Below are positions 1 through 24,562 of a stretch of DNA of 49,479 nt, one piece after another. The DNA is from Candidatus Nomurabacteria bacterium. Its GTDB lineage: Bacteria; Patescibacteriota; Minisyncoccia; Phycocordibacterales; UBA5272. The stretch lies in contig JARIGQ010000010.1 of NCBI GenBank assembly GCA_029288775.1, positions 1-49,479 on the forward strand. Reading direction: 5' to 3'. A program made the translations under genes and the position numbers. Each line of letters opens with the position of its first letter. The stretch's first letter is position 1. The notes below the pieces were generated by a model. It ran no database searches. It worked only from the letters and a program-made list of their open reading frames with translations, and had not been told where the DNA came from.

Positions 1-121
1 TTCCTCGGAAAACTTGATGTTGTACTCCTTAGAGATCTTGGGGTAGACCTCATCCAGAGCATTCCTTTGCTCCCTTGTTCCCGCAAAGGTGAAGGTTTGG
101 CAAGTTTCAACGGATGCTTCC
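1..121. repeat. Terminal direct repeat, left copy (identical to 49359-49479)
   Basis: ttcctcggaaaac...cggatgcttcc occurs at both ends of the window, 121 bp exact. Confidence 0.97.
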
Positions 122-126
122 TGCAT
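1..126 (-). CDS. 5' part of a 73-aa hypothetical protein spanning the circular junction (126->1, then 49358->49263)
   Basis: ATG at 126, preceded by a GAGGAG RBS and a TGnTAAAAT extended -10. Reads MQEASVETCQTFTFAGTREQRNALDEVYPKISKEYNIKFSEE and continues in frame after joining the ends. Confidence 0.75.
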   Translation of the reverse strand, partial: MQEASVETCQTFTFAGTREQRNALDEVYPKISKEYNIKFSEE

Positions 127-185
127 GAACAATTCTCCTCGTGAAGTTCATTCCGATTTTATCATAATTTATTAAAAGCCTACGA

Positions 186-213
186 GCTGGGGCTCATGGA
201 CGAAGTTGGAACC
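186..213 (+). repeat. tRNA-3'-like 28-bp direct repeat R1 (putative att site)
   Basis: GCTGGGGCTCATGGACGAAGTTGGAACC; near-identical copies at 48699 and 49183. Confidence 0.9.
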
Positions 214-226
214 TATTTATTAAAAT

Positions 227-258
227 AAAAAACCGGGAGGCGATTTTACTCGTCCCCG
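227..258 (-). terminator. Intrinsic terminator of the 287-676 cassette gene
   Basis: Minus strand CGGGGACGA-loop-TCGCCTCCCG imperfect stem followed by a T tract. Confidence 0.55.
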
Positions 259-286
259 TGTTTCTGTGCGTGAATTGCCCGCTGGG

Positions 287-676
287 TTACTGCTTAAGTT
301 TATCCCACCCATTTTTTTCTCGCATCTCATCCAGCAAATCCCACATTCCTGTAAGACGTTCACAACGGTATTGGATATCGCCCACATTCAAGCAGGCAGA
401 CTCCTCTATCCACCAAAATTGCTTGTTCTGCGAGAGTGCATAGGCAACAAGTGCCTCAGACATTTTTTGGTTCGTCATTTCCCAGGAAGGATGAACGTCT
501 CCGACAAAGTTGTCGATACCCATGTTGGGCATATGACTGCAGACCATGTTTCTGATCTGCCAATCTTCCTCACCTCCGCACAAGAGAAGGGGGGCAAATG
601 CCATACCACCCCCGTGAGGATTGGTGTTGATCACACCCGTACCGTCGTTCCCTTGAAAAATAACAAGATAAGCCAT
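287..676 (-). CDS. Hypothetical protein (cassette gene between R1 and R2)
   Basis: 129-aa ORF with its own promoter and terminator; no family recognised. Confidence 0.7.
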   Translation of the reverse strand: MAYLVIFQGNDGTGVINTNPHGGGMAFAPLLLCGGEEDWQIRNMVCSHMPNMGIDNFVGDVHPSWEMTNQKMSEALVAYALSQNKQFWWIEESACLNVGDIQYRCERLTGMWDLLDEMREKNGWDKLKQ

Positions 677-725
677 TCTTAAAACCTTTCTACGGTATAT
701 GTTTGAAAGTTAAAACCCAGAAATT

Positions 726-753
726 ATTGTACTATAAAAAATCTATTTGTCAA
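726..753 (-). promoter_or_regulatory. Sigma70-type promoter for 287-676
   Basis: TTGACA-16 nt-TACAAT on the minus strand, with the -35 abutting repeat R2. Confidence 0.65.
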
Positions 754-755
754 AT

Positions 756-783
756 GCTGGGGCTGTGGGAAGAAGTTGGAACT
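756..783 (+). repeat. tRNA-3'-like direct repeat R2 (variant)
   Basis: GCTGGGGCTGTGGGAAGAAGTTGGAACT. Confidence 0.85.
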
Positions 784-786
784 TTT

Positions 787-1329
787 TTAGAGTCCAAGTC
801 TATCTCTTGTTAGTTCAAAAGCGATCACATTTTGCCCTGTCGGAGCATCTTGCTTCAGAATTAGGTCGTATGCTTCCTTAAAAGGCAGCTTCTTTACTTC
901 CAAGTGCTCGTGCTCGTCAGCCTTAAGAGAACTCTTTGACAAATCAGTAGCTAGAAAAATATGAAACTTGTTCCTCATATGGTTAAACGGATAAATAGTA
1001 ATCAACTTTTCTAATTTACCGGCTTTCATGCCAATTTCTTCTTGTAACTCACGCTGAGCTGCTTTTTCTATGTCATCTTCAGTTGGGTCTCCCACTTCGA
1101 TTGCTCCACTTACAACTTCCCACGTAAAATCTTTTCTATTCAATCTCCATTCACGTTTAATGTATACATTTTTATTCTCGTCCATAGCTAAGACAACTAC
1201 CCCATCCTTCCACGAGAAAATATCCCACGTAACATTCTTGTCTTCTGAAGTTATAAGATCTGCTTCAATATGAAAGAAGCGTCCAACACTTTTTATTCTT
1301 TCATTAAGCACATGGAATGGCTTCAACAT
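787..1329 (-). CDS. NUDIX hydrolase (ADP-ribose pyrophosphatase-like)
   Basis: Nudix box GAIEVGDPTEDDIEKAAQRELQEEIG. Start moved to MLKPF (1329) because the longer ORF overlaps the tRNA; TGgTATACT lies 6 nt upstream. Confidence 0.9.
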   Translation of the reverse strand: MLKPFHVLNERIKSVGRFFHIEADLITSEDKNVTWDIFSWKDGVVVLAMDENKNVYIKREWRLNRKDFTWEVVSGAIEVGDPTEDDIEKAAQRELQEEIGMKAGKLEKLITIYPFNHMRNKFHIFLATDLSKSSLKADEHEHLEVKKLPFKEAYDLILKQDAPTGQNVIAFELTRDRLGL

Positions 1330-1345
1330 ACTTAAAGTATACCAG

Positions 1346-1416
1346 CTGGGGTACAAGGACTCGAACCTCGATACTCAGGACCAAAACCTGATGTCCTACC
1401 ATTAGACGATACCCCA
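1346..1416 (-). tRNA. tRNA-Gln (TTG)
   Basis: Acceptor stem TGGGGTA/TACCCCA, anticodon arm TCAGG-TTTTGGT-CCTGA, T arm GGTTCGAGTCC; CCA not encoded. Confidence 0.95.
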
Positions 1417-1461: not shown

Positions 1462-1528
1462 TACTCAGGACCACTTCGTTACCGCTCGCAAGCTCGCTGC
1501 TGATGTCCTACCATTAGACGATACCCCA
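1462..1528 (-). pseudogene. Partial duplicate of tRNA-Gln with a disrupted anticodon loop and no T arm or 3' acceptor strand
   Basis: tactcaggacca and ctgatgtcctaccattagacgataccccaatat are repeated from the tRNA, separated by a ~26-nt insert. Confidence 0.8.
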
Positions 1529-1695
1529 ATATACTTGCAAGTAAATACAGTATATTTCAGTAGTTTTAGTCAAAAAGTATTTGCCTTTATTACTCTTAAT
1601 ACTGCATCTACTGAAACATACTTACTCTTTACTGTGTTGAAATACTACCATTTTCTGTACGTCTTTTCCATAGAGAGCATCAACACGGAGGTACC

Positions 1696-3836: not shown

Positions 3837-3898
3837 AAGGCTAGTGTAACACCCTGTAAGAAGAACCCGTCTTCCGTTGTATACTAAAGGATACATCT

Positions 3899-4318
3899 AT
3901 GAAAACATCTACTATCATTATCGTCGTCGTGCTCGTCATCCTTTTGGGAGGAGGTGCTTGGATCTATCACACCCTTCATACCTACACTCCTTCTACCTAC
4001 GTACAAGAAACCCAAAACGGCGATGGTTCAACTACGGTTACTACTGTAAACACAGAAACAGGTACCTCAACTCCCGGAGCGCCAACGTATACGCTTGCAC
4101 AAGTTGCCACCCACAATGACGCAACTTCCTGTTATTCGGTTATCTCTGGAAAAGTGTATGATCTTACCGCATGGATCAATCTTCACCCTGGAGGCAAGCA
4201 GGCCATCCTTTCAATCTGCGGAATAGACGGTACAGCGCCTTTCATGGCACAGCATCATGGGGCAGCGCGACAAATGAGTATTCTTGCCCGTTACTACATC
4301 GGCAATCTCGCCCAATAA
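3899..4318 (+). CDS. Membrane-anchored cytochrome b5-like heme-binding protein
   Basis: N-terminal TM; YTLAQVATHN, GKVYDLT, HPGG and HHG motifs. Confidence 0.9.
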   Translation: MKTSTIIIVVVLVILLGGGAWIYHTLHTYTPSTYVQETQNGDGSTTVTTVNTETGTSTPGAPTYTLAQVATHNDATSCYSVISGKVYDLTAWINLHPGGKQAILSICGIDGTAPFMAQHHGAARQMSILARYYIGNLAQ

Positions 4319-12985: not shown

Positions 12986-15900
12986 TTAATAATCTAGTAA
13001 TTCCTTTAATATTCTTCGACCCTCATCAACATGGGTCTCAAGATCAAATTGTTCAAGATAATTTCTGTATTGACTAAATGTCTGCCCAGTAACTGGATCA
13101 GTAAATCTACTAGAATAGAACCTAGATACTTCTTTATGTTCTCCTACAGAAAGAGGAATTACGTTATCAGTACTCTGAATAAAATCATTTCCAAATTTTG
13201 TTGCATTCCTCTGTTCGACATTATGATGAAACTGAATTCCTTCTGGAACATTAAATTCTTTTCGTGCAGCAGCTTTAAGGGCATCAAACGAAGAAAATGA
13301 CTTGCTCCCCATCTGCTCTGCAAGAGATACTCCTGTTTGAATAGCTGGCTTGCTTTCACTTGCGATCTGTGCCCCTTTGCTTGCTATATTTGCGGTACTT
13401 CCAACAGCAGGAATTATAGGAATTGCTCCAGCATAATTGATCACTTTGGATACCGGATTTGTTGCTTGATTACCTTGTTGAATTGCATTTGCAGATATTG
13501 ACACTACTGCCGGCAACTGAGGTAGTATAGCATTTATTACTTGAGTAATTGTTGGTAAAGCAGCTAGAATCGCTGCGCCTATCGTAATTGCCGCTTCTGC
13601 ACAAACAACAACTAAAGGACCAATACATTTTCCAGTAGGATCATTATATATTGCTGGATTATTCCTTGCATAGGCGTAACTATTCATCTGCTGTGGATCA
13701 AGTAGATAACTCTGCGGTAATTTATATAACATTGGATCCACAGAAATGAAGGAATGGGCTTTAGTGTCCAAATACCTCGCATGGAAATAGTTCAGCCCCG
13801 TAACGTCATCAAAGTCTTGATTCGTGAATCCTCGTGTATGTTCCGCATTATCTTTCCTCACATCCCTCTGTACATAGTTTCCAAACACATCGGCCATATC
13901 CATTTCTACTATGTCTCCGTGTTCATCTGTAGTAATAACAGGAGTGCCAAGATAGTTCGTAAGAAGGTAAGTTACTTTACCTGTACTTGCTTCATTGCCC
14001 TTTTGGTATGTATACGTACCGACTAGATTACCATTTAGAGTTAGATATGTAGTCACGGTTCCACGGCTGTCATCTTGATATGAACTGAATGGAGTATATA
14101 CGGTGTACTGAGTGGTAGTTGCAACAGTCAAGGTATTGATAGTTGATGTAGCCAAACTGGATGTCGCATATGGATAAGATACTGCAGGGAGAATGTTCTG
14201 CGTGCTTGTAGAATACAAATAACTATCATCTGGGGTATACCCTGCGTAGGATTCCTGTCGTGAAGACCCTGTGGTTGCAAATGGGTATGCTAAACCACTT
14301 CCACTGTTGTATAGGTTAGCAATCTCCGCGGAAGAAAGCGCGCGAGACCAAACACCAAGTTCATCTATAGCTCCATGGAAGAAGTCGTAGTCTGCAGATC
14401 CTTGACTACCAATAGCAACTCTTGCTGATGTTCCTGAACCAAGGTTTACACTAGAAGCTGTTCCACTCTGAACTCCGTCTATGTAAAAAGTAAGGTTTCC
14501 GTTTGACGAATTAGAAAGTGTAACCGCCACATGATGCCATCCGTTACTCCCTACGGCCGATGTAGAGTTGTATTGAGTACCTGTGTAGAAAGCAAGCTTT
14601 GCTGCACTGTTTTCTACATAGAACTGATACTGCATTGTTCCTCCAACGTCTCGTTTATCTAGAATGGCTTCCTGGTACAGACTGTTGGTATTTATATATA
14701 CCCAGCCAGCAATTGTCATTCCTCCACCTGCAAGATTAAGACCGGTTCCTAAAGCAACAGTACTGTTTGTCCCGTTAAATCCAGCCCCGTTGTTTAGCTT
14801 TCCATTTCCTGAAGAATACGTAATATTAGTATCTGATCCGTTTGTAGAACCGGCTGCATCGTTGGAATTGCCATCCAATTTGTAATACGCAACCATACCT
14901 GTGTTTCCAACAAGATAAGTACTAGGTGTGGAATTCAGGATAAATGCCCCAGCTTCTGGAGAAAACATCATTGATAATTCAATAGGAGGAGTATTTGTCA
15001 GATCAATTGAAGTTGTTGCAGTTGTGGTCGCATAGGAAGGTATAGTGGACCTATCAAATGGAATAAATTGAGTGGTAGTTGCGTACGTAATACTTTGATT
15101 AGAAATATACCTATTAAACGTGAGGACAGGATTTAAGGCTTGGAAAACTTGGGTTGATGTTCCATTTGCGTCTGGTGTTAAAACAAACGCTGAAGTTGTG
15201 GCTGTAATAAAGTCTTTGTAGTACGAACTAAGGTCAAAACTAAATGTTGAAGTACCTGATTTTTGACCAATTACAGTTGTAGAAGAAGATACCGAAGTAA
15301 ATTGAGGTGTAGATGTAGCCCCTGTAGTAGATGCGACTTGAGTCCAGTAAGTAAAGTTTAGTTTTATTGAACTTGTAGCCACTGTCGAAGTAGAGAGATC
15401 GTACTTAAAGGTAGCTGTATCTATGGACGTGTTTAAATCTGGTAACCCTATACGGCACATTGTTGTAGTAGCCCCGTTTGTTCCAAATGAACAAATATTA
15501 CCTACTGAAGTAGTAGTTGTCCCAGAAGCAGTTGAGGTGCTATATGAAGTGAGCGCTCGGGAAGTATCAAGAGGGAGTATGATCGTCTGATTCGATGAAG
15601 ATGTTGCCGCGTTGGCAAGCGACATTGGAATAATTGAAAGATCCCCATTATTTACTCTGTACAACTCTTCTAGGGCGGCGTCAGATAGAATAAATCCAGA
15701 TAACGCGCTCACAGAGTCTTTTACTTTTGTCTTTTGTGCAGTAATAACACAGCTACTTGTTGCTGCCTGACCCGGGCATGAACTTGTTGCAAACGGAAGA
15801 GCATAAGCAAAGACTGTTTTTACATCTGAATTAATCCGAACCGGTGTTTTAAGCAGTTCGTTATAGGTATCCTGGCTAATGCCAAGTGTTGTAGAGGCTA

Positions 15901-18900
15901 ATGCAAATCCTGACGTAGCATAGGTCAGATTAAACTGCTCATCTGACAGCAATCCTGCAGGAACCAAATCAAGGTGTGTTACTGGAGCAACCAGGGTAGA
16001 TGTTGCAATATACACCCTTATGGTAGTAGTAGCGCTGTAAGGGAAAAGAGAAGTTAGATACCGAACAATCACCACACCAGAACTACCATCCCCTCCTGCT
16101 GTTCCTGCACAGTGGCACCCATTATCGTTACTTCCACCTCCTCCACCTCCACCTCTATTGGCCGCACCAGAAGATCCAGGAGAGTTAACAAATGCAGTGG
16201 CACCATTTCCGCCCCCATCAACACCACTACCAGCAGTTGAACCCTGTGAGTCACCACCACCCCCTCCACCTCCACCATATCCTAGAGAAGTTCCTGTAAT
16301 AGAAGAAGAAGTGCCAGTTCCACCATTACCCGATGTAGAACCTGTACCATTTACTCCGTTTGCAAAATCTCCTGCACCTCCACCCGATGGGTAATACCCA
16401 GAAAGAATACCAGTTCCTCCTGTTTTACCGCTTCCAGAGTCACCACCGTTTAGATTTGTAGGACGAGGAGCACCTTTACCTCCTTTAGAAACTAATCCTG
16501 CAAAGGTTGTAGTAGCTCCATTGCCCCCCGAAACTGTAGCCCCTGCATCTCCCCCTGTTCCTCCCGCACCTATAGTTACGGAGTAAGTTCCAGCTGTAAA
16601 TGCAACCGTAGAACTTGAAATTACTTGCCCACCTCCACCTCCACCACCTTGTGAACCTCCTCCACCTCCACCACCTCCTACGGCAAGTACTTCAGCATTG
16701 AAACTTGCCCCAGATGGAACAGTAAACGTTCCTGATGAATTAAACGTATGCACTGTGTAAGAACCAGAAGTGCTAGTGGCGCCTCCTGAGGGTGAGTCCG
16801 CGTATGCAACTTGATCAACCCAGAACCCTGGTATTGTGGTGGTTGATGTGTAATATGCAGTAGATGTTGCCAACGTCTGAGGTAAATTAGATCTTGAAAA
16901 GACAGGATAAGGAGTAGATGTAGAGGAGACTATTGCGGGCAATACTGCACTTGAGGTAGCTACATAATATGTAGTAGTAGTTGCATGATAAGTAGTAGTG
17001 TAGTATCCAGGTGTAATAGTATCAGCAAGATCGTGATTAAACTGAATACTAATTACCTCAATTTCAGAACTACCATAACTTCCTATCGTGTATGTGGTAC
17101 TACCTACACTTGTTGCAGTGTGATACCAAATATTGCTAATTGAAGTAGCAGTTAAAGGAGATGAAGCGGTTCCCGTGTTAGAGGTAACAAATACTTTATT
17201 ATTTTTATCTTGAATATTTTCACTAACACTGAGACTAGAAAACTGATTGGAGTTTCCCGCTCCACCTTGAACATCGTAGTAATAATTAGAAGTATTTAAA
17301 CCTTTAAGTGAAATCCATTTGTAATGGTCTGTTGCATTTCCACAATATGTGCCACAATTACTTGTAACAGAAACTGAATTAGAGGTAGTAGTAGCGATAC
17401 CATAGAGACGTAAATCAGTATTGGTACTTGGTGCAACTTGTCGAGCAAGCTGAGTCATAGCAACTCCATTAAAGCTTGGAGTGTCACAGTAAGAAGCACA
17501 AGAAGCTATTACATATTGCGACCCACTGCCGGGGGCAAAAGTAGTTCCACCAAGCTGAGAATTTACTATAGATACAGTGGTACTTGCCGTAGAAGTTGCA
17601 GTGTAATCTGTTGAATAATATCCAGGAGAAAGCTGAATAACCCAAGCTCCATTTGTAGAAGTTGCCTGATAATATCCATTTATTGTTGTAGTTGCTGTTG
17701 ATGAAGCAAAGGAAATATTAGGTAAAGTGAGAATGCCTTTATGGACCATCCAAAATTCCTCAGTAGCAGCCTGACTTGGTGTAAATCCACTTAAGTTGGT
17801 AACTATTTCCCTAAATGCAGCTTTACGAAGGGTCTTGTCACATTCAGTAGTTGAAGCAGCAGAAGCGCACTGTGTTGTTGAAGTAGCCATGAAAACTTTA
17901 GTAATCTGATATGCATCCTTGAGGGTAGTAGAAGCAAATTCTCGATAGGACTCTGGAGAGATAAAGACAAGCGGTGACGTAGTTCCTGTACTTATGTCAA
18001 AAGAACTATCATGATTTTCACCGAAGTAAGCTGCGATTGTGTTTTGAATCCCAGCGGTAAAACTTGTAGTAGTAGCATTTGTTATTCCTGAAACTAATGT
18101 AGTAGAAGCTAGAGTCAAGCGTGGAGTATCAGCGTACGCCTTGAGAGTAACAGCAACTGCCTCCCATGGATACGTTGTGGATCCCCATTGAGCGTCGTTC
18201 ATTATGAGAATTTTAAGAGGAGAAGTACTACTTGCCTGTTGAGTAAGTATTGTAGGAGTGACGTTTGTGTCGATACGAATACCATCAGAACTTAAGTTTT
18301 GTATATAATAACTGTTAAAAATGTATGGTAAATCAGTCGAATAATTGTGACTATCCGTCCCAATTGTTGTATTTGTTGAGGGCCCCATCAATAATGAGCT
18401 TTCCGTAGGGCTCGGACTATTCTTGATTGAAAGAATATAATTTACTGTAGTTGATGTAGAAACTGTAAGACTAAATGGGGAAGTTCCAATTACACAACGT
18501 GAAGGGGAAGGAATACTTGCAACATATCCTCCATTACAAGCTGTAGTCCACTGTAATGTGAATTGACTATTTACTGTTCTATAACTATTAATGATCAGGT
18601 GATTAGATAGATCGTACACTGCATTTTGCGTATAGTCTCCTATATTATTTGGGATACTTGCTGCACCAATTACGACTAAATAGAGTTCCTTTAAGGTACT
18701 CCAACTGAGAGTTATTCCTTTATCATTCTTGGCAAAGGACTGAAGAGAAACCATGTACTCAGTAGAAGAAGCATATTTGATTCCCAACAAATCATCGATT
18801 TGAGATTGATAGCTTTCAACTGTTGTTTGAGTAATACCAGCTGCTTGGAGCTCAGTAAAAGCAGTAGACGTGATGTAATATGGGATTGTGTTAAAGTATT

Positions 18901-21900
18901 GTAATCTTGGTTCATCTGAATTTTGGTTACTATACTCAGTTGTAAAGTACAAGCCAGAGTAGTAGGTACTCGTAGCACTGCTACTGCTTCGAGAAGTCAC
19001 AGAAGGAACAGTTATGTTACCTAGGTAGGTTGAGGTGGATGTTAATTCTGTAGAATTACCAGGCAAGCGTGCTTTTGCAGCATATACATACCACATTTCC
19101 TGTAGGGCACGATCAGATAGTAGATAACCACTTTCTTTGTAGTATTTTTCAAAGATCACCTTTTTAGCGTTCGTACAAGCAGATACAACAGAGTTACAAC
19201 CTGCAAGGATCATTACAGTCTTTACTTTAGTGGTGTCTGTTAGCCCAAGTAAAGCTAGGGTGTTGTATGTACTCGTAGACACATAAGGAAGATTACTGTA
19301 TTGATCAAGCGCAACAACAATTCCTGTAGCTACATAGGTATTATATGAACTAATGGTTCCACTATTTACTGTAAATGTCGCTTGACTACTCGTTGCAATA
19401 CTACTTGTAGCTATTCCTACATATGAGGAAGGAATAAGGTACTCCCCTGTTGAAATTTTAATAATATCGGTTATAAGTCCAGCAGTAGCAACTGTACTCG
19501 TACTTCTTTGGTTTATGTCATTTGCCAGTAGTTGCTTAGTCGTATCAGAAATACACGTCTGACGATTTGCCGTAGATGTTGCGGCACAGAATTTACTTGT
19601 AAACGGCGAAGCATAATACCCGGTAACCAAGTTGAGCAAAGATGTCTTATCTAGCAACGAAAGCGAAGATAGCGTGTTGTATGTAGAAGTAGCAATATAG
19701 GTACTTGATGTCGCAACTTGAGCCAAAAGGTCACCTTGGGATAGAGTGCTAATTGCTAGACCGGTAGTAGAAGGACTAACCTTTTGGTTGACAAGGGCAC
19801 TTGCTTGAACCACTTTCTTAAGTCTTTCTCCATTCTCATCGTAGGTATAACGCTCCGTGCCATTGGTACTTGTAGCTAAAACAAGCTGATTGAGAGTATT
19901 CCACGCGTATGAGTTATCTCCGGACTGAATACGATTTCCTTGCGAGTCATAAGATACGTTTACGCCTCCGATCGAAGTCACTGCATTAGCATTTTGCATT
20001 CCGTCCTTACTGTAACGATACAAAACATTATTTTCACTGATAATGTTTCCAATCGGATCATAGACAAGACTATCCACTAGAGCCCCTCCTCCGTCATATG
20101 AAGTAGAAGTTTGAGTTAGGCGAGCAAGATTGTCATAGGTGAAGCTATCACTCTTTGTGTGAGTCGTTCCTGCAATGTCCTTGTATGTTGTAAGGATATT
20201 GCTTGGAGTCATGTAATCCTTATAGGTAAATTCATCTTTGTAGAGCTCAACCTGGTTAGAGCCTGAAAGAGAACATCCTGTTGAGTTAAAAAGATACACA
20301 GACTTTCCTAATTTTGGCGAAATCACTCCATCGGTAGATGTCGTAGTGTAGGTATTGCAAAGCTGTATTCCATTGCCTAAAGAATAGGAAGAAAGATCCC
20401 CCATTGAGTTAAATGTGGTGTTGCTAACAATAGATTTCGTGCTGCCACTCGGGGTTATATATGAAAGTGAAGCTTGTTTCCCGTCTAAAGTATAGGAGTA
20501 GACAGCTTGTCCGTTGTCAGGATATGTAATCGTGGTTGGGTTACTAAAAGTATCGTAAGCGTAAGAACGAGTATATGTTTTGCCGTCAATAGAAAGCATT
20601 TCACTTCCTAATTTTCCATAGGAATTGTAAGTTAGCGTAGTTGAAGATGTACCTCGATTAATAGTACAAGGAGAAATATAGTTATTCACACAGCCTGTAT
20701 ATGTGAGGGAAACAGTAGATGTGCCGTTAGCTGAGTCAGATACGGTTCTAGTTGTCGGTCGGTTTAAAGCATCATATGAATAACTTATTGAACCAAGCGG
20801 TCCTGTTTTTGAAAGAAGGTTTCCTAAGGAATCATAGGTGTAGGAATAGGTGGTAAATGTTGAGTCTGAAGACGGGTGTGAGTCTTCTTGGTATGTTAAA
20901 AGCCCATTAGATAGGTAGTTGAAATTTCTAATATTTCCATTTGCATCGGTTATACGAGAGAGATTATTTGTTGGAGTATAAGAGTACGTAGTAGTATACG
21001 TATTTCCATTATTATATTCCTGAACAGTGGCCAAGTTACCATTAGCGTCATACGTATATGTTTTCTTGTGCTGAGTAGACGCATTGTCTTGGATAGTAAG
21101 CGATCGAGCACCGTACTGGTAAGTTACTTTACTTCCAAAAGCCTCCTTAGCTGTCACTCTTCCAAGACCATCGTAGGTATATATAGTTTTTCCGTTTGCT
21201 GGAGTGCCAGATGTATATCCATATCCTGTTGTGATGTATGGTAATGATACTGAGGTAACATTACTGCTTGCATCGTAAGTTGTGTCTTGGGTAGAAAAAG
21301 AATCAATGGTGCTTTCCTTTTTAGATTGAATTAACCTCCCATAACTATCGTAAATGTCTACAGAGCGAGCTTCCTGTCCACTTGAACCCATTTTTCGTGT
21401 ATAAACAGTAAGACCACCTCCGTACACATAATTGATCCTTGCTTCATCGTGAACACCCCCTCCAGAATCTAATGTATAAGATCTGGTAACTTTACCTAAT
21501 CCATCTACTTCTTTAACATAAGTTATTCCATCTGGTCCTTTAGTAGATAATAAGTTAAGTGTGTAAGGGTCATAAGAATACGTAGTCGTCCCATTGAGTG
21601 CGTCAACTTTTTGTATCGGGAAGTAATAAGAGCTGTCATAAGAAACTTTAGTTATGTTTCCCAGAGCATCCGTTGTTTTAGTTACGTTCCCCATAGGATC
21701 ATATTCAACTTGCGTTGAACTTGTGGCGTTTACCGTACCGTCACTATTATAAATAGTATCTAAGGTTGTGGTTACAGCTCCCTTATCTACTAATCCATAA
21801 GGAAGTCCATCATAGTAGTAGACAGTATTTCCTATTGTCTGACCTGAGTAGTCTGCAGTTGTCTGCTTAACCAAGCGTTGTGGACGTGTATTTGAATATA

Positions 21901-24562
21901 TATATGAAGTTACTGTGAGGTCCGACCCCTTGTCTGTAATAGTTGAAGAAGCAAAGGAAATGAACGGTTCAATATCTCCATAGTTGTATGAAGTCTTAAT
22001 AAGGCGCTTAGTTTCATCGTACACATTCCTGCTTGCTGAAGATACATAAGACCCATCAGAGTTGTAGAGATTCTTTATCTGACTATCTAGGTACGTAAAG
22101 GAAGAGGAAGCATACGAGTAGGTGGTATAAAGTGAAAGATCTTGGCTTACTAATGTTGAAGTGCCTGAGGATAGATCGAATGTGTCTGTACGATAACTCC
22201 TTCCGATATTGTAATAAGAGTCCCCTTTTTCCCCTGTGCTGGGGTTATCACCATTACCCTGGTGGAAGTACGTAACTGTTTTTTTATTTCCATCCACTAC
22301 TTCAACTTTACCGAAGCCAGCAAATTTGTGATCACGAGGAGCGGAGTCATCAAAATACATCTGACCATCTTGGAAACTATAGGAAACTACATGGGGAGTA
22401 GAATCTGATGGAGAAAGTTTCTCAGTGGTTGTGCCTACGGTGTACATCGGTACTGGTAGAGTAGGATTGAGACCACTTGCTGTTGTCCAAGAATAGGAGA
22501 CGTCTAGAGTTGACCCTAAAGGGCTTGTTACTTTAGTAAGAATGTCTTGTTTCTTTGTATTATTAGTAGCACCATCATAATCTGTATCTAAATCACCATC
22601 AGTATCATATTCTTTAGTATTTTTTTGGAGTGTATATGGGTTCCCAAAACCGTCTGTGCACTTTGAATAAGTTACTAAGTATCCAGAAAGCGGTGATGAT
22701 GTAGAAACGAAAGAATTCCCTGTATTAATCAATACTGTATTTACTGATTGATCTACGGGAGCCGTTGTAGGGAAGGTTCCTCCAGGACATGAACCGGAAG
22801 TGCCTGCATAATTAGAGTTGTACGAACGCACAATGTCAGGAAGGCCATCGTTATTGATGTCTACAAATCTAACTCCAGCTTCATATGGAGAATTCAGTCC
22901 TGTGTTATAAACATAGTAAGTGGAGGTCGAATACCCGGAGCCAGTATTCAGATAAATACTGTATGTGGTAGTGCCTGAAGCAGATCTAGAAATTTTGTCT
23001 TGTAGACCATCCCCATTTACATCAGCTAATTGGTCAGTACCTATGTTGAACCAGAAATTAGTAGAAGTACTGTAGTCAAATGTATTATTGGTTGTATTGA
23101 TTCCCACTCCATTATTTCCATACCTATCGTTATATACAACATCATCAAATCCATCCCCGTTTACATCTGTAACCACGGACTCCTGACTCCACCACCACTC
23201 ACCTTCACCCATTATCCGCAAAGCGGGAATTGGGTCATCCATGATCATAGCTCTAAGATAAGCAGGTGAGGTTGGTTTTTTAAGAGATCTTAACAAAAAC
23301 GTACTACTTCCTTGGTTGTATTTATAATTTACATAATGTCCCGAAGAATATGCACCGTAAGTAACCTCGGCTTGAACGAGATCTTTTTTGTAGTCACCAT
23401 TAATTTCTATAGGAAAATATCCATCTCCAGCATTGTAGAGTTCTAAAATGCCATTGTTATCAGTATCCATAACCACATTGGTTCCATAAGGACTAACACT
23501 ATTAGAAATAGTGCCTGAGAAATTTGGGGCTGACTTTTCGTAATCAAAGGTTGTTTTAGGTAGGGTGGTCCAGTCCCCGTTGGTACTTAGATGCTTCTCT
23601 TCAATCCCTTGAAGAAGCGACCTCGTACCATTTGATCCTGTGATGTACGTAAAGTAAAAATAAGCACTATCTTTACCATTTGTACTTACTTTAGTGGCGG
23701 ACACTCTCTTGGTATCAGTAGTTTTAAAGCCATATTTATAGCTAGATAACTGATCTAGCTTATTTTCTAAAGTAAAAGTAACTAAATTTAAAGGGTGAGC
23801 CATTGCATGTTCGGTATATGAAATAGAACTAGGGTATACGGTTCCAGAATCTTTTACATAACTATAAAGAATGCCGTTTCCAAACTTATCGCGAACTTCT
23901 GTGAGGTACCATCTCCCAATCAATACTCCTGAGTCGTCCTGGATACGGCTGTTATAGGTGTTACCAAAGTAATAGGTAGTACCGTCTCTATCTGTCATTT
24001 GCCATGTATTGCCTGTATACGTGTATTTTGGATAAGAACCATCATCTACTTTCTGTTCATAATTAACCCCGTTACTAGAAACCAACTCACCATGCAACGA
24101 AGAAATAAAAGCGGGGTTACTATACATCTTATCTGAGCCAGTTTTGGTGGTTCTTTCAACGTAGGGAATACTTATAGTCCAACCGTACCCGAACCACCCT
24201 GAATCGTTATTTTGGGAGTTATATGAAAGAGAAAGCTTTGGAGTCATCCCATTCCTACCGTCCGGTAAAGTTAAGGGGTAGGTATATGTAAGGGCTCCTG
24301 ACGACTGATCCACTCCGGAAGACCCCTGACTCTGGAGACGGGTTGCTTTATTACCCACTGGGTCCAGGGAAGCCGCAGATCCTATATCGTTAGAAACTGT
24401 ATCGGCGGCATAAATAGTTGCAACTGGAGTTAAAAGCTGTATAAAAACTAAAATAGCACTCATGATGAGTGCCTTTTTCCGAAGAAGAGAATACAAAAAT
24501 CTACGAGAACGTCTCGTGAGCGAACCGAATGTTGCGTTTGGCATTCGTACCCTGCTCCTCAT
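12986..24562 (-). CDS. Giant secreted SpvB/FG-GAP/RHS (YD-repeat) polymorphic toxin with a large internal insert and an HNH-like C-terminal domain
   Basis: Signal-like N-terminus; SGALTYTYPLTLP..GRNGMTPKLSLSYNS; DVNGDG repeats; FAGFGKV; YD repeats; YLGTP; GLNYFHARY; NNPAIYNDPTG; C-terminal FHHNVEQ..N..H. Confidence 0.92.
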   Translation of the reverse strand: MRSRVRMPNATFGSLTRRSRRFLYSLLRKKALIMSAILVFIQLLTPVATIYAADTVSNDIGSAASLDPVGNKATRLQSQGSSGVDQSSGALTYTYPLTLPDGRNGMTPKLSLSYNSQNNDSGWFGYGWTISIPYVERTTKTGSDKMYSNPAFISSLHGELVSSNGVNYEQKVDDGSYPKYTYTGNTWQMTDRDGTTYYFGNTYNSRIQDDSGVLIGRWYLTEVRDKFGNGILYSYVKDSGTVYPSSISYTEHAMAHPLNLVTFTLENKLDQLSSYKYGFKTTDTKRVSATKVSTNGKDSAYFYFTYITGSNGTRSLLQGIEEKHLSTNGDWTTLPKTTFDYEKSAPNFSGTISNSVSPYGTNVVMDTDNNGILELYNAGDGYFPIEINGDYKKDLVQAEVTYGAYSSGHYVNYKYNQGSSTFLLRSLKKPTSPAYLRAMIMDDPIPALRIMGEGEWWWSQESVVTDVNGDGFDDVVYNDRYGNNGVGINTTNNTFDYSTSTNFWFNIGTDQLADVNGDGLQDKISRSASGTTTYSIYLNTGSGYSTSTYYVYNTGLNSPYEAGVRFVDINNDGLPDIVRSYNSNYAGTSGSCPGGTFPTTAPVDQSVNTVLINTGNSFVSTSSPLSGYLVTYSKCTDGFGNPYTLQKNTKEYDTDGDLDTDYDGATNNTKKQDILTKVTSPLGSTLDVSYSWTTASGLNPTLPVPMYTVGTTTEKLSPSDSTPHVVSYSFQDGQMYFDDSAPRDHKFAGFGKVEVVDGNKKTVTYFHQGNGDNPSTGEKGDSYYNIGRSYRTDTFDLSSGTSTLVSQDLSLYTTYSYASSSFTYLDSQIKNLYNSDGSYVSSASRNVYDETKRLIKTSYNYGDIEPFISFASSTITDKGSDLTVTSYIYSNTRPQRLVKQTTADYSGQTIGNTVYYYDGLPYGLVDKGAVTTTLDTIYNSDGTVNATSSTQVEYDPMGNVTKTTDALGNITKVSYDSSYYFPIQKVDALNGTTTYSYDPYTLNLLSTKGPDGITYVKEVDGLGKVTRSYTLDSGGGVHDEARINYVYGGGLTVYTRKMGSSGQEARSVDIYDSYGRLIQSKKESTIDSFSTQDTTYDASSNVTSVSLPYITTGYGYTSGTPANGKTIYTYDGLGRVTAKEAFGSKVTYQYGARSLTIQDNASTQHKKTYTYDANGNLATVQEYNNGNTYTTTYSYTPTNNLSRITDANGNIRNFNYLSNGLLTYQEDSHPSSDSTFTTYSYTYDSLGNLLSKTGPLGSISYSYDALNRPTTRTVSDSANGTSTVSLTYTGCVNNYISPCTINRGTSSTTLTYNSYGKLGSEMLSIDGKTYTRSYAYDTFSNPTTITYPDNGQAVYSYTLDGKQASLSYITPSGSTKSIVSNTTFNSMGDLSSYSLGNGIQLCNTYTTTSTDGVISPKLGKSVYLFNSTGCSLSGSNQVELYKDEFTYKDYMTPSNILTTYKDIAGTTHTKSDSFTYDNLARLTQTSTSYDGGGALVDSLVYDPIGNIISENNVLYRYSKDGMQNANAVTSIGGVNVSYDSQGNRIQSGDNSYAWNTLNQLVLATSTNGTERYTYDENGERLKKVVQASALVNQKVSPSTTGLAISTLSQGDLLAQVATSSTYIATSTYNTLSSLSLLDKTSLLNLVTGYYASPFTSKFCAATSTANRQTCISDTTKQLLANDINQRSTSTVATAGLITDIIKISTGEYLIPSSYVGIATSSIATSSQATFTVNSGTISSYNTYVATGIVVALDQYSNLPYVSTSTYNTLALLGLTDTTKVKTVMILAGCNSVVSACTNAKKVIFEKYYKESGYLLSDRALQEMWYVYAAKARLPGNSTELTSTSTYLGNITVPSVTSRSSSSATSTYYSGLYFTTEYSNQNSDEPRLQYFNTIPYYITSTAFTELQAAGITQTTVESYQSQIDDLLGIKYASSTEYMVSLQSFAKNDKGITLSWSTLKELYLVVIGAASIPNNIGDYTQNAVYDLSNHLIINSYRTVNSQFTLQWTTACNGGYVASIPSPSRCVIGTSPFSLTVSTSTTVNYILSIKNSPSPTESSLLMGPSTNTTIGTDSHNYSTDLPYIFNSYYIQNLSSDGIRIDTNVTPTILTQQASSTSPLKILIMNDAQWGSTTYPWEAVAVTLKAYADTPRLTLASTTLVSGITNATTTSFTAGIQNTIAAYFGENHDSSFDISTGTTSPLVFISPESYREFASTTLKDAYQITKVFMATSTTQCASAASTTECDKTLRKAAFREIVTNLSGFTPSQAATEEFWMVHKGILTLPNISFASSTATTTINGYYQATSTNGAWVIQLSPGYYSTDYTATSTASTTVSIVNSQLGGTTFAPGSGSQYVIASCASYCDTPSFNGVAMTQLARQVAPSTNTDLRLYGIATTTSNSVSVTSNCGTYCGNATDHYKWISLKGLNTSNYYYDVQGGAGNSNQFSSLSVSENIQDKNNKVFVTSNTGTASSPLTATSISNIWYHTATSVGSTTYTIGSYGSSEIEVISIQFNHDLADTITPGYYTTTYHATTTTYYVATSSAVLPAIVSSTSTPYPVFSRSNLPQTLATSTAYYTSTTTIPGFWVDQVAYADSPSGGATSTSGSYTVHTFNSSGTFTVPSGASFNAEVLAVGGGGGGGGSQGGGGGGGQVISSSTVAFTAGTYSVTIGAGGTGGDAGATVSGGNGATTTFAGLVSKGGKGAPRPTNLNGGDSGSGKTGGTGILSGYYPSGGGAGDFANGVNGTGSTSGNGGTGTSSSITGTSLGYGGGGGGGGDSQGSTAGSGVDGGGNGATAFVNSPGSSGAANRGGGGGGGSNDNGCHCAGTAGGDGSSGVVIVRYLTSLFPYSATTTIRVYIATSTLVAPVTHLDLVPAGLLSDEQFNLTYATSGFALASTTLGISQDTYNELLKTPVRINSDVKTVFAYALPFATSSCPGQAATSSCVITAQKTKVKDSVSALSGFILSDAALEELYRVNNGDLSIIPMSLANAATSSSNQTIILPLDTSRALTSYSTSTASGTTTTSVGNICSFGTNGATTTMCRIGLPDLNTSIDTATFKYDLSTSTVATSSIKLNFTYWTQVASTTGATSTPQFTSVSSSTTVIGQKSGTSTFSFDLSSYYKDFITATTSAFVLTPDANGTSTQVFQALNPVLTFNRYISNQSITYATTTQFIPFDRSTIPSYATTTATTSIDLTNTPPIELSMMFSPEAGAFILNSTPSTYLVGNTGMVAYYKLDGNSNDAAGSTNGSDTNITYSSGNGKLNNGAGFNGTNSTVALGTGLNLAGGGMTIAGWVYINTNSLYQEAILDKRDVGGTMQYQFYVENSAAKLAFYTGTQYNSTSAVGSNGWHHVAVTLSNSSNGNLTFYIDGVQSGTASSVNLGSGTSARVAIGSQGSADYDFFHGAIDELGVWSRALSSAEIANLYNSGSGLAYPFATTGSSRQESYAGYTPDDSYLYSTSTQNILPAVSYPYATSSLATSTINTLTVATTTQYTVYTPFSSYQDDSRGTVTTYLTLNGNLVGTYTYQKGNEASTGKVTYLLTNYLGTPVITTDEHGDIVEMDMADVFGNYVQRDVRKDNAEHTRGFTNQDFDDVTGLNYFHARYLDTKAHSFISVDPMLYKLPQSYLLDPQQMNSYAYARNNPAIYNDPTGKCIGPLVVVCAEAAITIGAAILAALPTITQVINAILPQLPAVVSISANAIQQGNQATNPVSKVINYAGAIPIIPAVGSTANIASKGAQIASESKPAIQTGVSLAEQMGSKSFSSFDALKAAARKEFNVPEGIQFHHNVEQRNATKFGNDFIQSTDNVIPLSVGEHKEVSRFYSSRFTDPVTGQTFSQYRNYLEQFDLETHVDEGRRILKELLDY

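Follow-up and report, generated by a model that had tools for sequence, protein, structure and literature searches.

Patescibacteria have tiny genomes, and gene acquisition in these bacteria is poorly described. Here we analyse a 49,479-nt stretch of DNA from Candidatus Nomurabacteria bacterium (hereinafter the window), which is an entire contig (C2) of a 692-kb genome comprising 14 contigs and 98.9% complete. At both ends of the window, copies of a short repeat, designated R, alternate with small units near a tRNA-Gln gene. As argued below, R probably represents the P' (element-side) half-site of integrative elements that target tRNA genes by means of a large serine recombinase (LSR). Positions are those of the window unless another contig is named; C-, G-, and L-numbers designate contigs of the genome under study, genomes of its relatives, and fetched loci, respectively.

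Repeat copies and units at the ends of the window

ARAGORN and Rfam both place tRNA-Gln(TTG) at 1345-1416 on the minus strand, in agreement with an initial annotation of the window, which had put the tRNA-Gln 3' end at 1345. That annotation had also listed five same-orientation repeats. A relaxed pattern recovers all five on one strand (186, 756, 48529, 48699, and 49183) and none in 100 shuffles, while the strict 28-mer matches three times in the window. The repeats are real, but only 27 of the proposed 28 bp are conserved, the last base being variable. The genus consensus of R is GCTGGGGCTGTGGGACGAAGTTGGAAC, after which a weakly T-rich tract follows.

Two plus-strand copies are located at the tRNA-Gln(TTG) end of the window. 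The copy at 186..212 was found by the strict pattern, the relaxed pattern, and nhmmer, and the copy at 756..782 (GCTGGGGCTGTGGGAAGAAGTTGGAAC) by the relaxed pattern and nhmmer. The other three, also on the plus strand, are located at the opposite end. Specifically, the copy at 48529..48555, the most distal one in its array, is degenerate (two mismatches; nhmmer 19.2 bits). The copy at 48699..48725 is identical to that at 186 and was found by the pattern matches and nhmmer. The copy at 49183..49209 carries the GTTCGAAC variant, and the homology to the second ORF73 unit (see below), at the end of C14, begins here.

The tRNA-proximal unit contains a NUDIX hydrolase gene (787..1329, minus strand; PF00293, E = 4.9e-12), which is co-directional with the tRNA and has its start codon 16 nt beyond the tRNA 3' end. 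The next unit contains a 129-aa open reading frame (ORF; 287..676, minus strand) that belongs to no known family; a promoter-like site lies at 753-726 on the minus strand. The 5' part of a copy of a ~75-aa ORF (ORF73) occupies 1..132 on the minus strand; bases 1-141 are the reverse complement of the C7 end, and bases 1-121 repeat the end of the window. At that other end, the 3' part of ORF73 occupies 49263..49479 on the minus strand, and the last 141 bases equal the C14 end. A 117-aa ORF (48779..49132, plus strand) has SGYSVIELLI, a putative prepilin signal motif, in its N-terminal part, and a terminator-like hairpin lies downstream of it at 49135-49160. No Pfam family was assigned to this pilin-like ORF, to ORF73, or to the 129-aa ORF. 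Finally, a 143-bp unit (48556..48698, plus strand) contains a promoter-like site at 48574-48601 and a predicted two-hairpin transcript ending in a T-run (z = -2.9). It has no Rfam family, and a putative small RNA or peptide is a possible product.

The genes of these units lie in either orientation relative to R. Promoter- or terminator-like sites are found beside four of the five window units (all except the NUDIX unit), in numbers that do not exceed those of shuffles. The initial annotation had assigned one passenger to each unit. Each unit has a plausible one, but the passenger called a small RNA consists of a promoter-like site and two hairpins. That annotation had also noted the absence of an intact recombinase, and indeed neither a tyrosine nor a serine recombinase is encoded in the window; matches to Pfam PF00589 and PF00239 in the genome are limited to C1 and C11.

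The window copies probably belong to two arrays

The two ends of the window overlap by 121 bp, and the overlap sequence also terminates C14 (plus strand) and C7 (reverse complement, C7rc). Specifically, C2 and C14 have an identical 141-bp suffix in common, and C2 and C7rc an identical 141-bp prefix. A 161-bp exact repeat forms this four-way assembly junction, inside two copies of the ORF73 unit. Elsewhere, C2 encodes a DNA polymerase III delta'-like protein, Dus, seryl-tRNA synthetase, and tRNA-Ala; because these are housekeeping genes, C2 is chromosomal. Since the overlap is a repeat junction and the contig carries housekeeping genes, a 49-kb circle is unlikely, and a circular replicon is unsupported. 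The circularised map used in the initial annotation is therefore abandoned, and among its unit lengths the 361-bp value is valid only under the circular join.

A simple reading of the join is a single chromosome in the order C14, C2, C7rc. The copies at 48529, 48699, and 49183 most likely continue into C7, in an array ending at tRNA-Gln(CTG) (C7 51063-51134); given the junction with C7 and C14 and the chromosomal nature of C2, we assign them to this array. Onward in C7rc, the next R copy is followed by a 66-aa ORF, then by a degenerate R, a SAM methyltransferase gene, and finally tRNA-Gln(CTG). At 186 and 756, the window copies are members of the tRNA-Gln(TTG) array; the distal portion of that array probably lies on C14, whose end contains a degenerate R and the other ORF73 copy. 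Thus, the five copies, initially taken for one array across the junction, are probably split over two, one per tRNA-Gln gene.

Homology between the two ORF73 units of the genome extends from one bounding R to the other. The rare C variant is present in the left R copy of both units, and the right R copies differ downstream of GCTGGGGCT. Synteny of the array flanks is mixed among relatives: a ferritin-like flank gene is located beside the TTG array in G017 and L183, C14-like genes are located beside the TTG array in G016, G019, and G007, and a C14-like gene is located beside a CTG array in G009. A metagenome scan with the flank protein yielded only two loci, with 60% and 69% identity.

The two tRNA-proximal genes, NUDIX and methyltransferase, start 16-17 nt after their tRNAs and have the leader AAGTATAYCA in common (window 1330-1344; C7 51135-51150), although they are mutually unrelated. 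A third genome, G005 (L146), also has this leader and, in addition, a tandemly duplicated GCTGGG block where the tRNA ends.

R is confined to the arrays and forms no hairpin beyond that of shuffled sequence

An nhmmer profile built from 36 copies finds R in this genome only on C2 (five copies), at the C7 end (two), and at the C14 end (one). All eight copies, seven full-length and one truncated, sit 3' of tRNA-Gln(TTG) or tRNA-Gln(CTG), and the remaining matches are partial (11-14 nt, E > 1). R is thus not scattered in many copies around the genome as a dispersed repeat of the REP or MITE type would be. Many R copies are near-identical to the consensus. The distal-most copies in this genome are the most degenerate.

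DNA folding of R with 20 or 45 nt on either side, on both strands, gave z-scores of -2.3 to +0.6, neighbouring terminators excepted, which agrees with the initial statement that the repeats are not attC-type hairpins. The left flank of R has almost no information and no dyad symmetry (158 copies). A Xer/dif-like site, suggested by the 28-bp size, was rejected because R shows no dyad symmetry. R has no Rfam match, and no tRNA model matched it; together with parsing by hand, this led us to reject R as a true tRNA 3' half or T-arm.

R mimics a tRNA 3' end with five extra bases

R has the layout (tRNA acceptor-end block)-N5-GGAY-GAAGT-TNGAAC, namely the reverse complement of a tRNA 3' end plus five bases. 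Specifically, the 3'-terminal 22 nt of tRNA-Gln(TTG), on the plus strand at 1345-1366, read GCTGGGG-TACAA-GGAC-TCGAAC, and R on the same, reverse-complement strand reads GCTGGGG-N5-GGAC-GAAGT-TNGAAC. At tRNA-Ser (G013, G024), the tRNA end GCGGAGA-GAGTG-GGAT-TCGAAC corresponds to R_Ser GCGGGGA-CTCTG-GGAC-GAAGT-TGGAAC. At tRNA-His of the genome under study, the tRNA end TGGTGTGCC-TATCG-AGAT-TCGAAC corresponds to R_His TGTGTGCC-GTAGT-AGAG-GAAGT-TAGAAC. At each of the three tRNAs, R begins with 7-8 nt that agree fully or almost fully with the acceptor end of that tRNA, and it has exactly five extra nucleotides before TNGAAC. Therefore, the first block of R tracks the target tRNA, while its outer box is the T-loop sequence, located 5 bp further out than in the tRNA.

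In serine integrases, the zinc-ribbon-domain motif is shifted 5 bp toward the centre in attB compared with attP half-sites (PMC3783163). The junctions at tRNA-Gln, tRNA-Ser, and tRNA-His all show this 5-bp displacement between the host and the element half-site. Judged from the sequence alone, the two boxes may be assigned to LSR domains. R diverges from the tRNA immediately after GCTGGGG, and the flank that adjoins tRNA-Gln in other genomes is retained up to the base before GCTGGGG, which points to an exchange point within this block. LSR systems cross over at a 2-bp dinucleotide in the centre of the site; here, the crossover would be located within 1345-1351, at the extreme end of the tRNA. 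A crossover inside GAAGTT, proposed from one shared variant, was discarded in view of flanks that lie directly beside tRNA-Gln in other genomes.

LSR elements at tRNA-Gln, tRNA-Ser, and tRNA-His

A phmmer search with the LSR of this genome (C11) as query covered every ORF of the fetched loci and led to the two homologues with an in-frame R described below. Within the genus, 41 of 53 genomes contain LSR homologues. Among seven LSR genes examined near tRNA-Gln, six (G029, G011, G015, two in G031, and G075) overlap the tRNA-Gln 3' end with their own 3' end. The initial annotation had suggested looking for a co-occurring recombinase family, and such a family is recognisable: LSRs abut tRNA-Gln in relatives, and the repeat lies at the far end of the element.

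The two LSRs checked against Pfam (G029 and G015) contain Resolvase, Recombinase, and Zn_ribbon_recom domains, and their 3' ends lie over tRNA-Gln(CTG). The codons with which the two genes finish (encoding LGYMDSNHD and LGYKDSNLN) are read from the reverse complement of the tRNA end. In both genomes a single R is located at the far end of the element, 6.5 kb from the tRNA in G015 and 5 kb in G029. The element in G015 carries a rolling-circle Rep, an EcoRI-type methylase, and GmrSD/HNH; that in G029 carries an Ltp lipoprotein and a tyrosine recombinase-like gene, the only extra tyrosine recombinase near an array. Beyond R, the flank (TGTGTTA or AGTGTGA) is one that lies directly beside tRNA-Gln without R in other genomes. 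The conserved PF00589 tyrosine recombinase is a single gene in our genome (C1) and is present in 39 of 41 genus genomes, with or without R.

At tRNA-Ser (G013, G024), the tRNA is followed by an LSR element and then by R_Ser copies, with one or two short LSR-less units beyond. In the genome under study, tRNA-His (C11 32736-32810) is overlapped by the 3' end of LSR1, which is followed by an internal R_His (51111-51136) and a distal R_His (60051-60076). The whole composite insertion spans ~27 kb (C11 32736-60076). The proximal LSR is intact (557 aa), while the distal one, LSR2, is split into two adjacent frames (51182-52063 and 52087-52716). The internal R_His comes directly after the 3' end of this broken gene, whose reading frame runs into R_His. 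Two LSR elements thus lie here in tandem, and the joint at which they meet is attP-like.

R is also found in frame near the 3' end of LSR genes on two contigs of metagenome-assembled genomes outside the candidate phyla radiation, where it encodes LG-x-(L/W)DDVRT. These contigs are titled Limisphaerales and Abditibacterium (L106 495-521 and L065 5850-5876, respectively), and ARAGORN finds no tRNA in the 8-kb loci. An in-frame position is what an unrecombined P-P' site would be expected to show; the copies could be such sites, internal tandem joints, or the product of mis-binned contigs. In viral contigs, there are neither close LSR relatives nor exact R matches.

Arrays are hypervariable and widespread in Patescibacteria

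R is present in 17 of 36 same-genus genomes, always as one-way clusters, and in two of 24 other families of the order. A correctly oriented tRNA-Gln (TTG or CTG) was found at 11 of 20 fetched loci, at 13 once two loci were extended, and at one more from coordinates. When one genome per species was scanned for the exact pattern, 84 stretches matched, and nearly all of them were titled Patescibacteria (Nomura-, Kaiser-, Morani-, Falkow-, Doudna-, Ames-, Jorgensen-, Vogel-, and Nealsonbacteria, and Paceibacterota). At 21 of the 80 8-kb loci checked, a tRNA-Gln is present in the correct orientation, with a chance level of ~2% by rough estimate.

The fetched loci contain 99 R-to-R units of 170-2663 bp (median ~620), and almost none is common to different species. 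Nearly every ORF family within an array is unique, whereas conservation is seen in some of the flanks. Related cargo is found in the tRNA-Ser array of one genome and the tRNA-Gln array of another (L041 versus L052). Pfam was run on 110 unit ORFs. In the best 25 of 63 families, the cargo includes NUDIX (four), serine and alpha/beta hydrolases (four), GNAT (two), MFS (two), and AlaX-like proteins (two), with single matches to SpoU, SDR, M20, AIPR, Ham1, and Amidase_2. Both the tie of the repeat to tRNA genes and the variable unit content, predicted initially from the window, are thus seen in relatives.

Several other features of these loci were observed. In L053 (G022, 3884-4204), a Gln-type R is located 220 nt downstream of tRNA-His(GTG). 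In several relatives, a tRNA-Gln-like unit of ~160 nt lies directly downstream of tRNA-Gln (L047; similar in L147, L151, L156, L157, L174, and L042). Its ends are acceptor-like, and it contains both a hairpin and a copy of the tRNA 3' end in inverted orientation. The unit is duplicated in G033 (L047 4913-5079 and 8490-8655; 94.6% identity over 167 bp), with an R-carrying insertion at the end of one copy. In the window, a second tRNA-Gln 5' half (1500..1532, minus strand) is located outside the array, with 33 bp identical to 1388-1420. In this upstream copy (1417-1535), an insert replaces the anticodon loop and a proper 3' end is lacking. Such 5' halves, singly or in pairs and spaced ~110-170 bp apart, are located upstream of tRNA-Gln(TTG) in at least 12 other genus genomes. 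Elsewhere in the window, 12989-24562 on the minus strand is one open reading frame of 3858 aa.

Model of serial integration and its alternatives

Serial site-specific integration at the tRNA 3' end, which the initial annotation had also proposed, is the best reading of these tRNA-linked, non-REP-like, hypervariable repeats. The host half-site (B') would be the last ~22 nt of the tRNA gene. R would mimic B' with the acceptor-end block, five variable bases, GGAY, and then the TNGAAC box five bases further out. Strand exchange would take place within the shared GCTGGGG at the tRNA end and, being at its very end, would leave the tRNA intact. Each integration would deposit a single R at the end of the insert that faces away from the tRNA, and further integrations at the same tRNA would displace older insertions outward. 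The outcome would be flank-R-unit-R-unit-...-tRNA, with every R in the same orientation.

Several observations weigh against this model. A distal R is found for only two of the six tRNA-Gln LSR elements; the other four have none within the available contig sequence. In our genome, no LSR abuts tRNA-Gln: one intact LSR is located at tRNA-His and the other is broken, and the assembly contains no cognate tRNA-Gln LSR for either of the arrays that the window touches. Because its left side is unconserved and without dyad symmetry, R alone is half a site. Canonical serine integrases do not recombine attP with attR (PMC3783163). Serial integration beside a resident LSR element therefore needs relaxed recognition of the left arm; the tRNA-His tandem shows that insertion beside a resident element happens. 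Finally, no LSR gene fragment is present in any of the 99 R-to-R units (tblastn, best E = 0.3), while simple decay of full elements should leave such fragments.

The recombinase-less units could be truncated elements or small units integrated by an LSR acting in trans. R_Ser and the next 622 bp form the left end both of an LSR-bearing element in G024 and of an LSR-less distal unit in G013, with 92% identity between the two. This match fits truncation or module exchange as well as mobilisation in trans. The stronger alternative, in which units are excised as small circles and inserted at the tRNA by an LSR in trans as an active cassette platform, is possible but, in our judgement, rather unlikely. 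The units are compact and free of LSR remnants, four of the five in the window have promoter- or terminator-like sites, many R copies are near-identical to the consensus, and LSR homologues are common in the genus. Furthermore, an R-bounded ORF73 unit is present in both arrays of our genome, related cargo appears in tRNA-Ser and tRNA-Gln arrays of different genomes, and the cargo (NUDIX, GNAT, hydrolases) is typical of chromosomal integrons. However, there is no conserved second half-site at unit right ends (a P arm sought there in 169 copies gave only minority classes, eight CTCGA/ACGA and seven TGTGTT/GTGTGA), the most distal R copies of our genome are the most degenerate and look like relics, one LSR-less unit resembles the left end of an LSR-bearing element (G013 versus G024), and almost no unit is common to different species. 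We give the same low weight to the broader proposal of a Patescibacteria gene-cassette platform made from an LSR and a tRNA, with one-way arrays of single-gene units that would each carry one 27-bp tRNA-mimicking half-site, be captured at the tRNA end, and be excised or exchanged by LSRs that passing phage- or plasmid-like elements supply in trans.

R might instead be a short homology anchor, where an LSR seeds only the first R and units are then gained, lost, and swapped by RecA-dependent recombination after DNA uptake, such uptake being known from these bacteria. The exact 27-bp R copies in direct orientation, the 161-bp exact repeat that links the two arrays and caused the assembly junction, and the mixed synteny of array flanks would fit. 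However, 27 bp is marginal for homologous recombination, and both the five-base displacement and the tRNA-specific first block of R are left unexplained, which makes this account improbable. It is more improbable still, to the point of being hardly credible, that R is a REP-like, regulatory, or RNA-level repeat or an unusual attC. The T-rich tract after R and the position of units between genes would agree with such a role, but R is confined to arrays in the 692-kb genome, genes lie in either orientation relative to it, it forms no hairpin beyond shuffles, and it has no Rfam match. The sole tyrosine recombinase is a conserved single-copy gene elsewhere, independent of R, while R itself is found in frame in LSR genes and at the ends of LSR elements.

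If R is a P' half-site, as we favour, a single short site would account for the hypervariable gene stacks beside tRNA-Gln, tRNA-Ser, and tRNA-His in many Patescibacteria groups, and a tRNA 3' end with five extra bases before the T-loop box would serve as a search rule for such arrays. The LSRs would represent a natural series of serine integrases retargeted to various tRNAs, of possible interest to enzyme engineers, and their sites would serve as examples of the spacing rule for attP and attB. Should the small units turn out to be mobile, the arrays would be an integron-like system with a serine recombinase. The broader LSR and tRNA platform, if true, would be a functional counterpart of the integron that relies on another enzyme and another site logic, and would be a main route by which these ultra-small genomes gain genes.

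Comparison with known systems

In the literature searched, mostly at the level of titles and abstracts, we found no description of these tRNA-anchored arrays, and the text of one study of horizontal transfer in Patescibacteria does not contain the terms tRNA, recombinase, or integrase. Close precedents for the concept nevertheless exist, namely tRNA-seeded serial islands and tandem arrays of the staphylococcal cassette chromosome (SCC) type; the initial annotation had recognised no named system. Its separation of the arrays from classical integrons does stand. Like chromosomal integrons and attC clusters without integrase, the arrays are one-way series of small, mostly single-gene units beside a fixed anchor, with hypervariable cargo rich in NUDIX, GNAT, and hydrolase genes. 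However, no intI is located beside the array (the single PF00589 gene is on C1), and neither folding nor dyad analysis reveals attC sites, which are imperfect inverted repeats of 57-141 bp that form a hairpin. Because there is no IntI and no folded attC, the array is not an integron. It also differs in its tRNA anchor, in its serine instead of tyrosine enzyme, and in the promoter- and terminator-like sites at most window units.

The elements resemble LSR attP/attB systems of the A118/LI, Bxb1, and phiC31 type in the Resolvase, Recombinase, and Zn_ribbon_recom domain set, which is found at element ends in relatives and on C11 and nowhere in the window. They also have in common short sites, an outer motif displaced by 5 bp, and no need for a long direct repeat. 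In contrast to those systems, the target here is the extreme 3' end of tRNA genes, the recombinase reading frame spans the site, only one half-site is conserved across many lineages, insertions are in tandem, and most array units lack the enzyme.

The tycheposon islands of Prochlorococcus likewise have a tRNA seed, older elements pushed outward, and an attachment-site copy as sole separator, in streamlined genomes where integrase-bearing elements are rare and transient and the islands persist (bioRxiv 10.1101/2020.12.28.424599). In those islands, 910 of 937 elements use tyrosine recombinases, plain partial tRNAs act as separators, and fragmented integrases remain (bioRxiv 10.1101/2020.12.28.424599). 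The arrays described here have the features of a tRNA-seeded island: a tRNA serves as anchor, site copies separate the units, some genomes contain integrase-bearing elements, and the cargo varies. Here, however, the enzyme is an LSR, the separator mimics a tRNA with five extra bases, most units contain a single gene, and the 99 units contain no integrase fragments. The likeness is one of concept.

SCC and pseudo-SCC elements at rlmH in staphylococci, and the accretion of cis-mobilisable elements (CIMEs) with integrative and conjugative elements (ICEs) in streptococci, also form tandem units at the 3' end of a conserved gene. These units are delimited by attachment-site repeats, some depend on the recombinase of a neighbour, and the SCC enzyme Ccr is itself an LSR. 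Each of them measures from kilobases to tens of kilobases and bears modules for resistance or conjugation; SCC targets a protein-coding gene, and the ICE/CIME enzyme is a tyrosine integrase. In concept, SCC arrays are like those described here in their tandem units, their site repeats, and their anchor at the 3' end of a gene.

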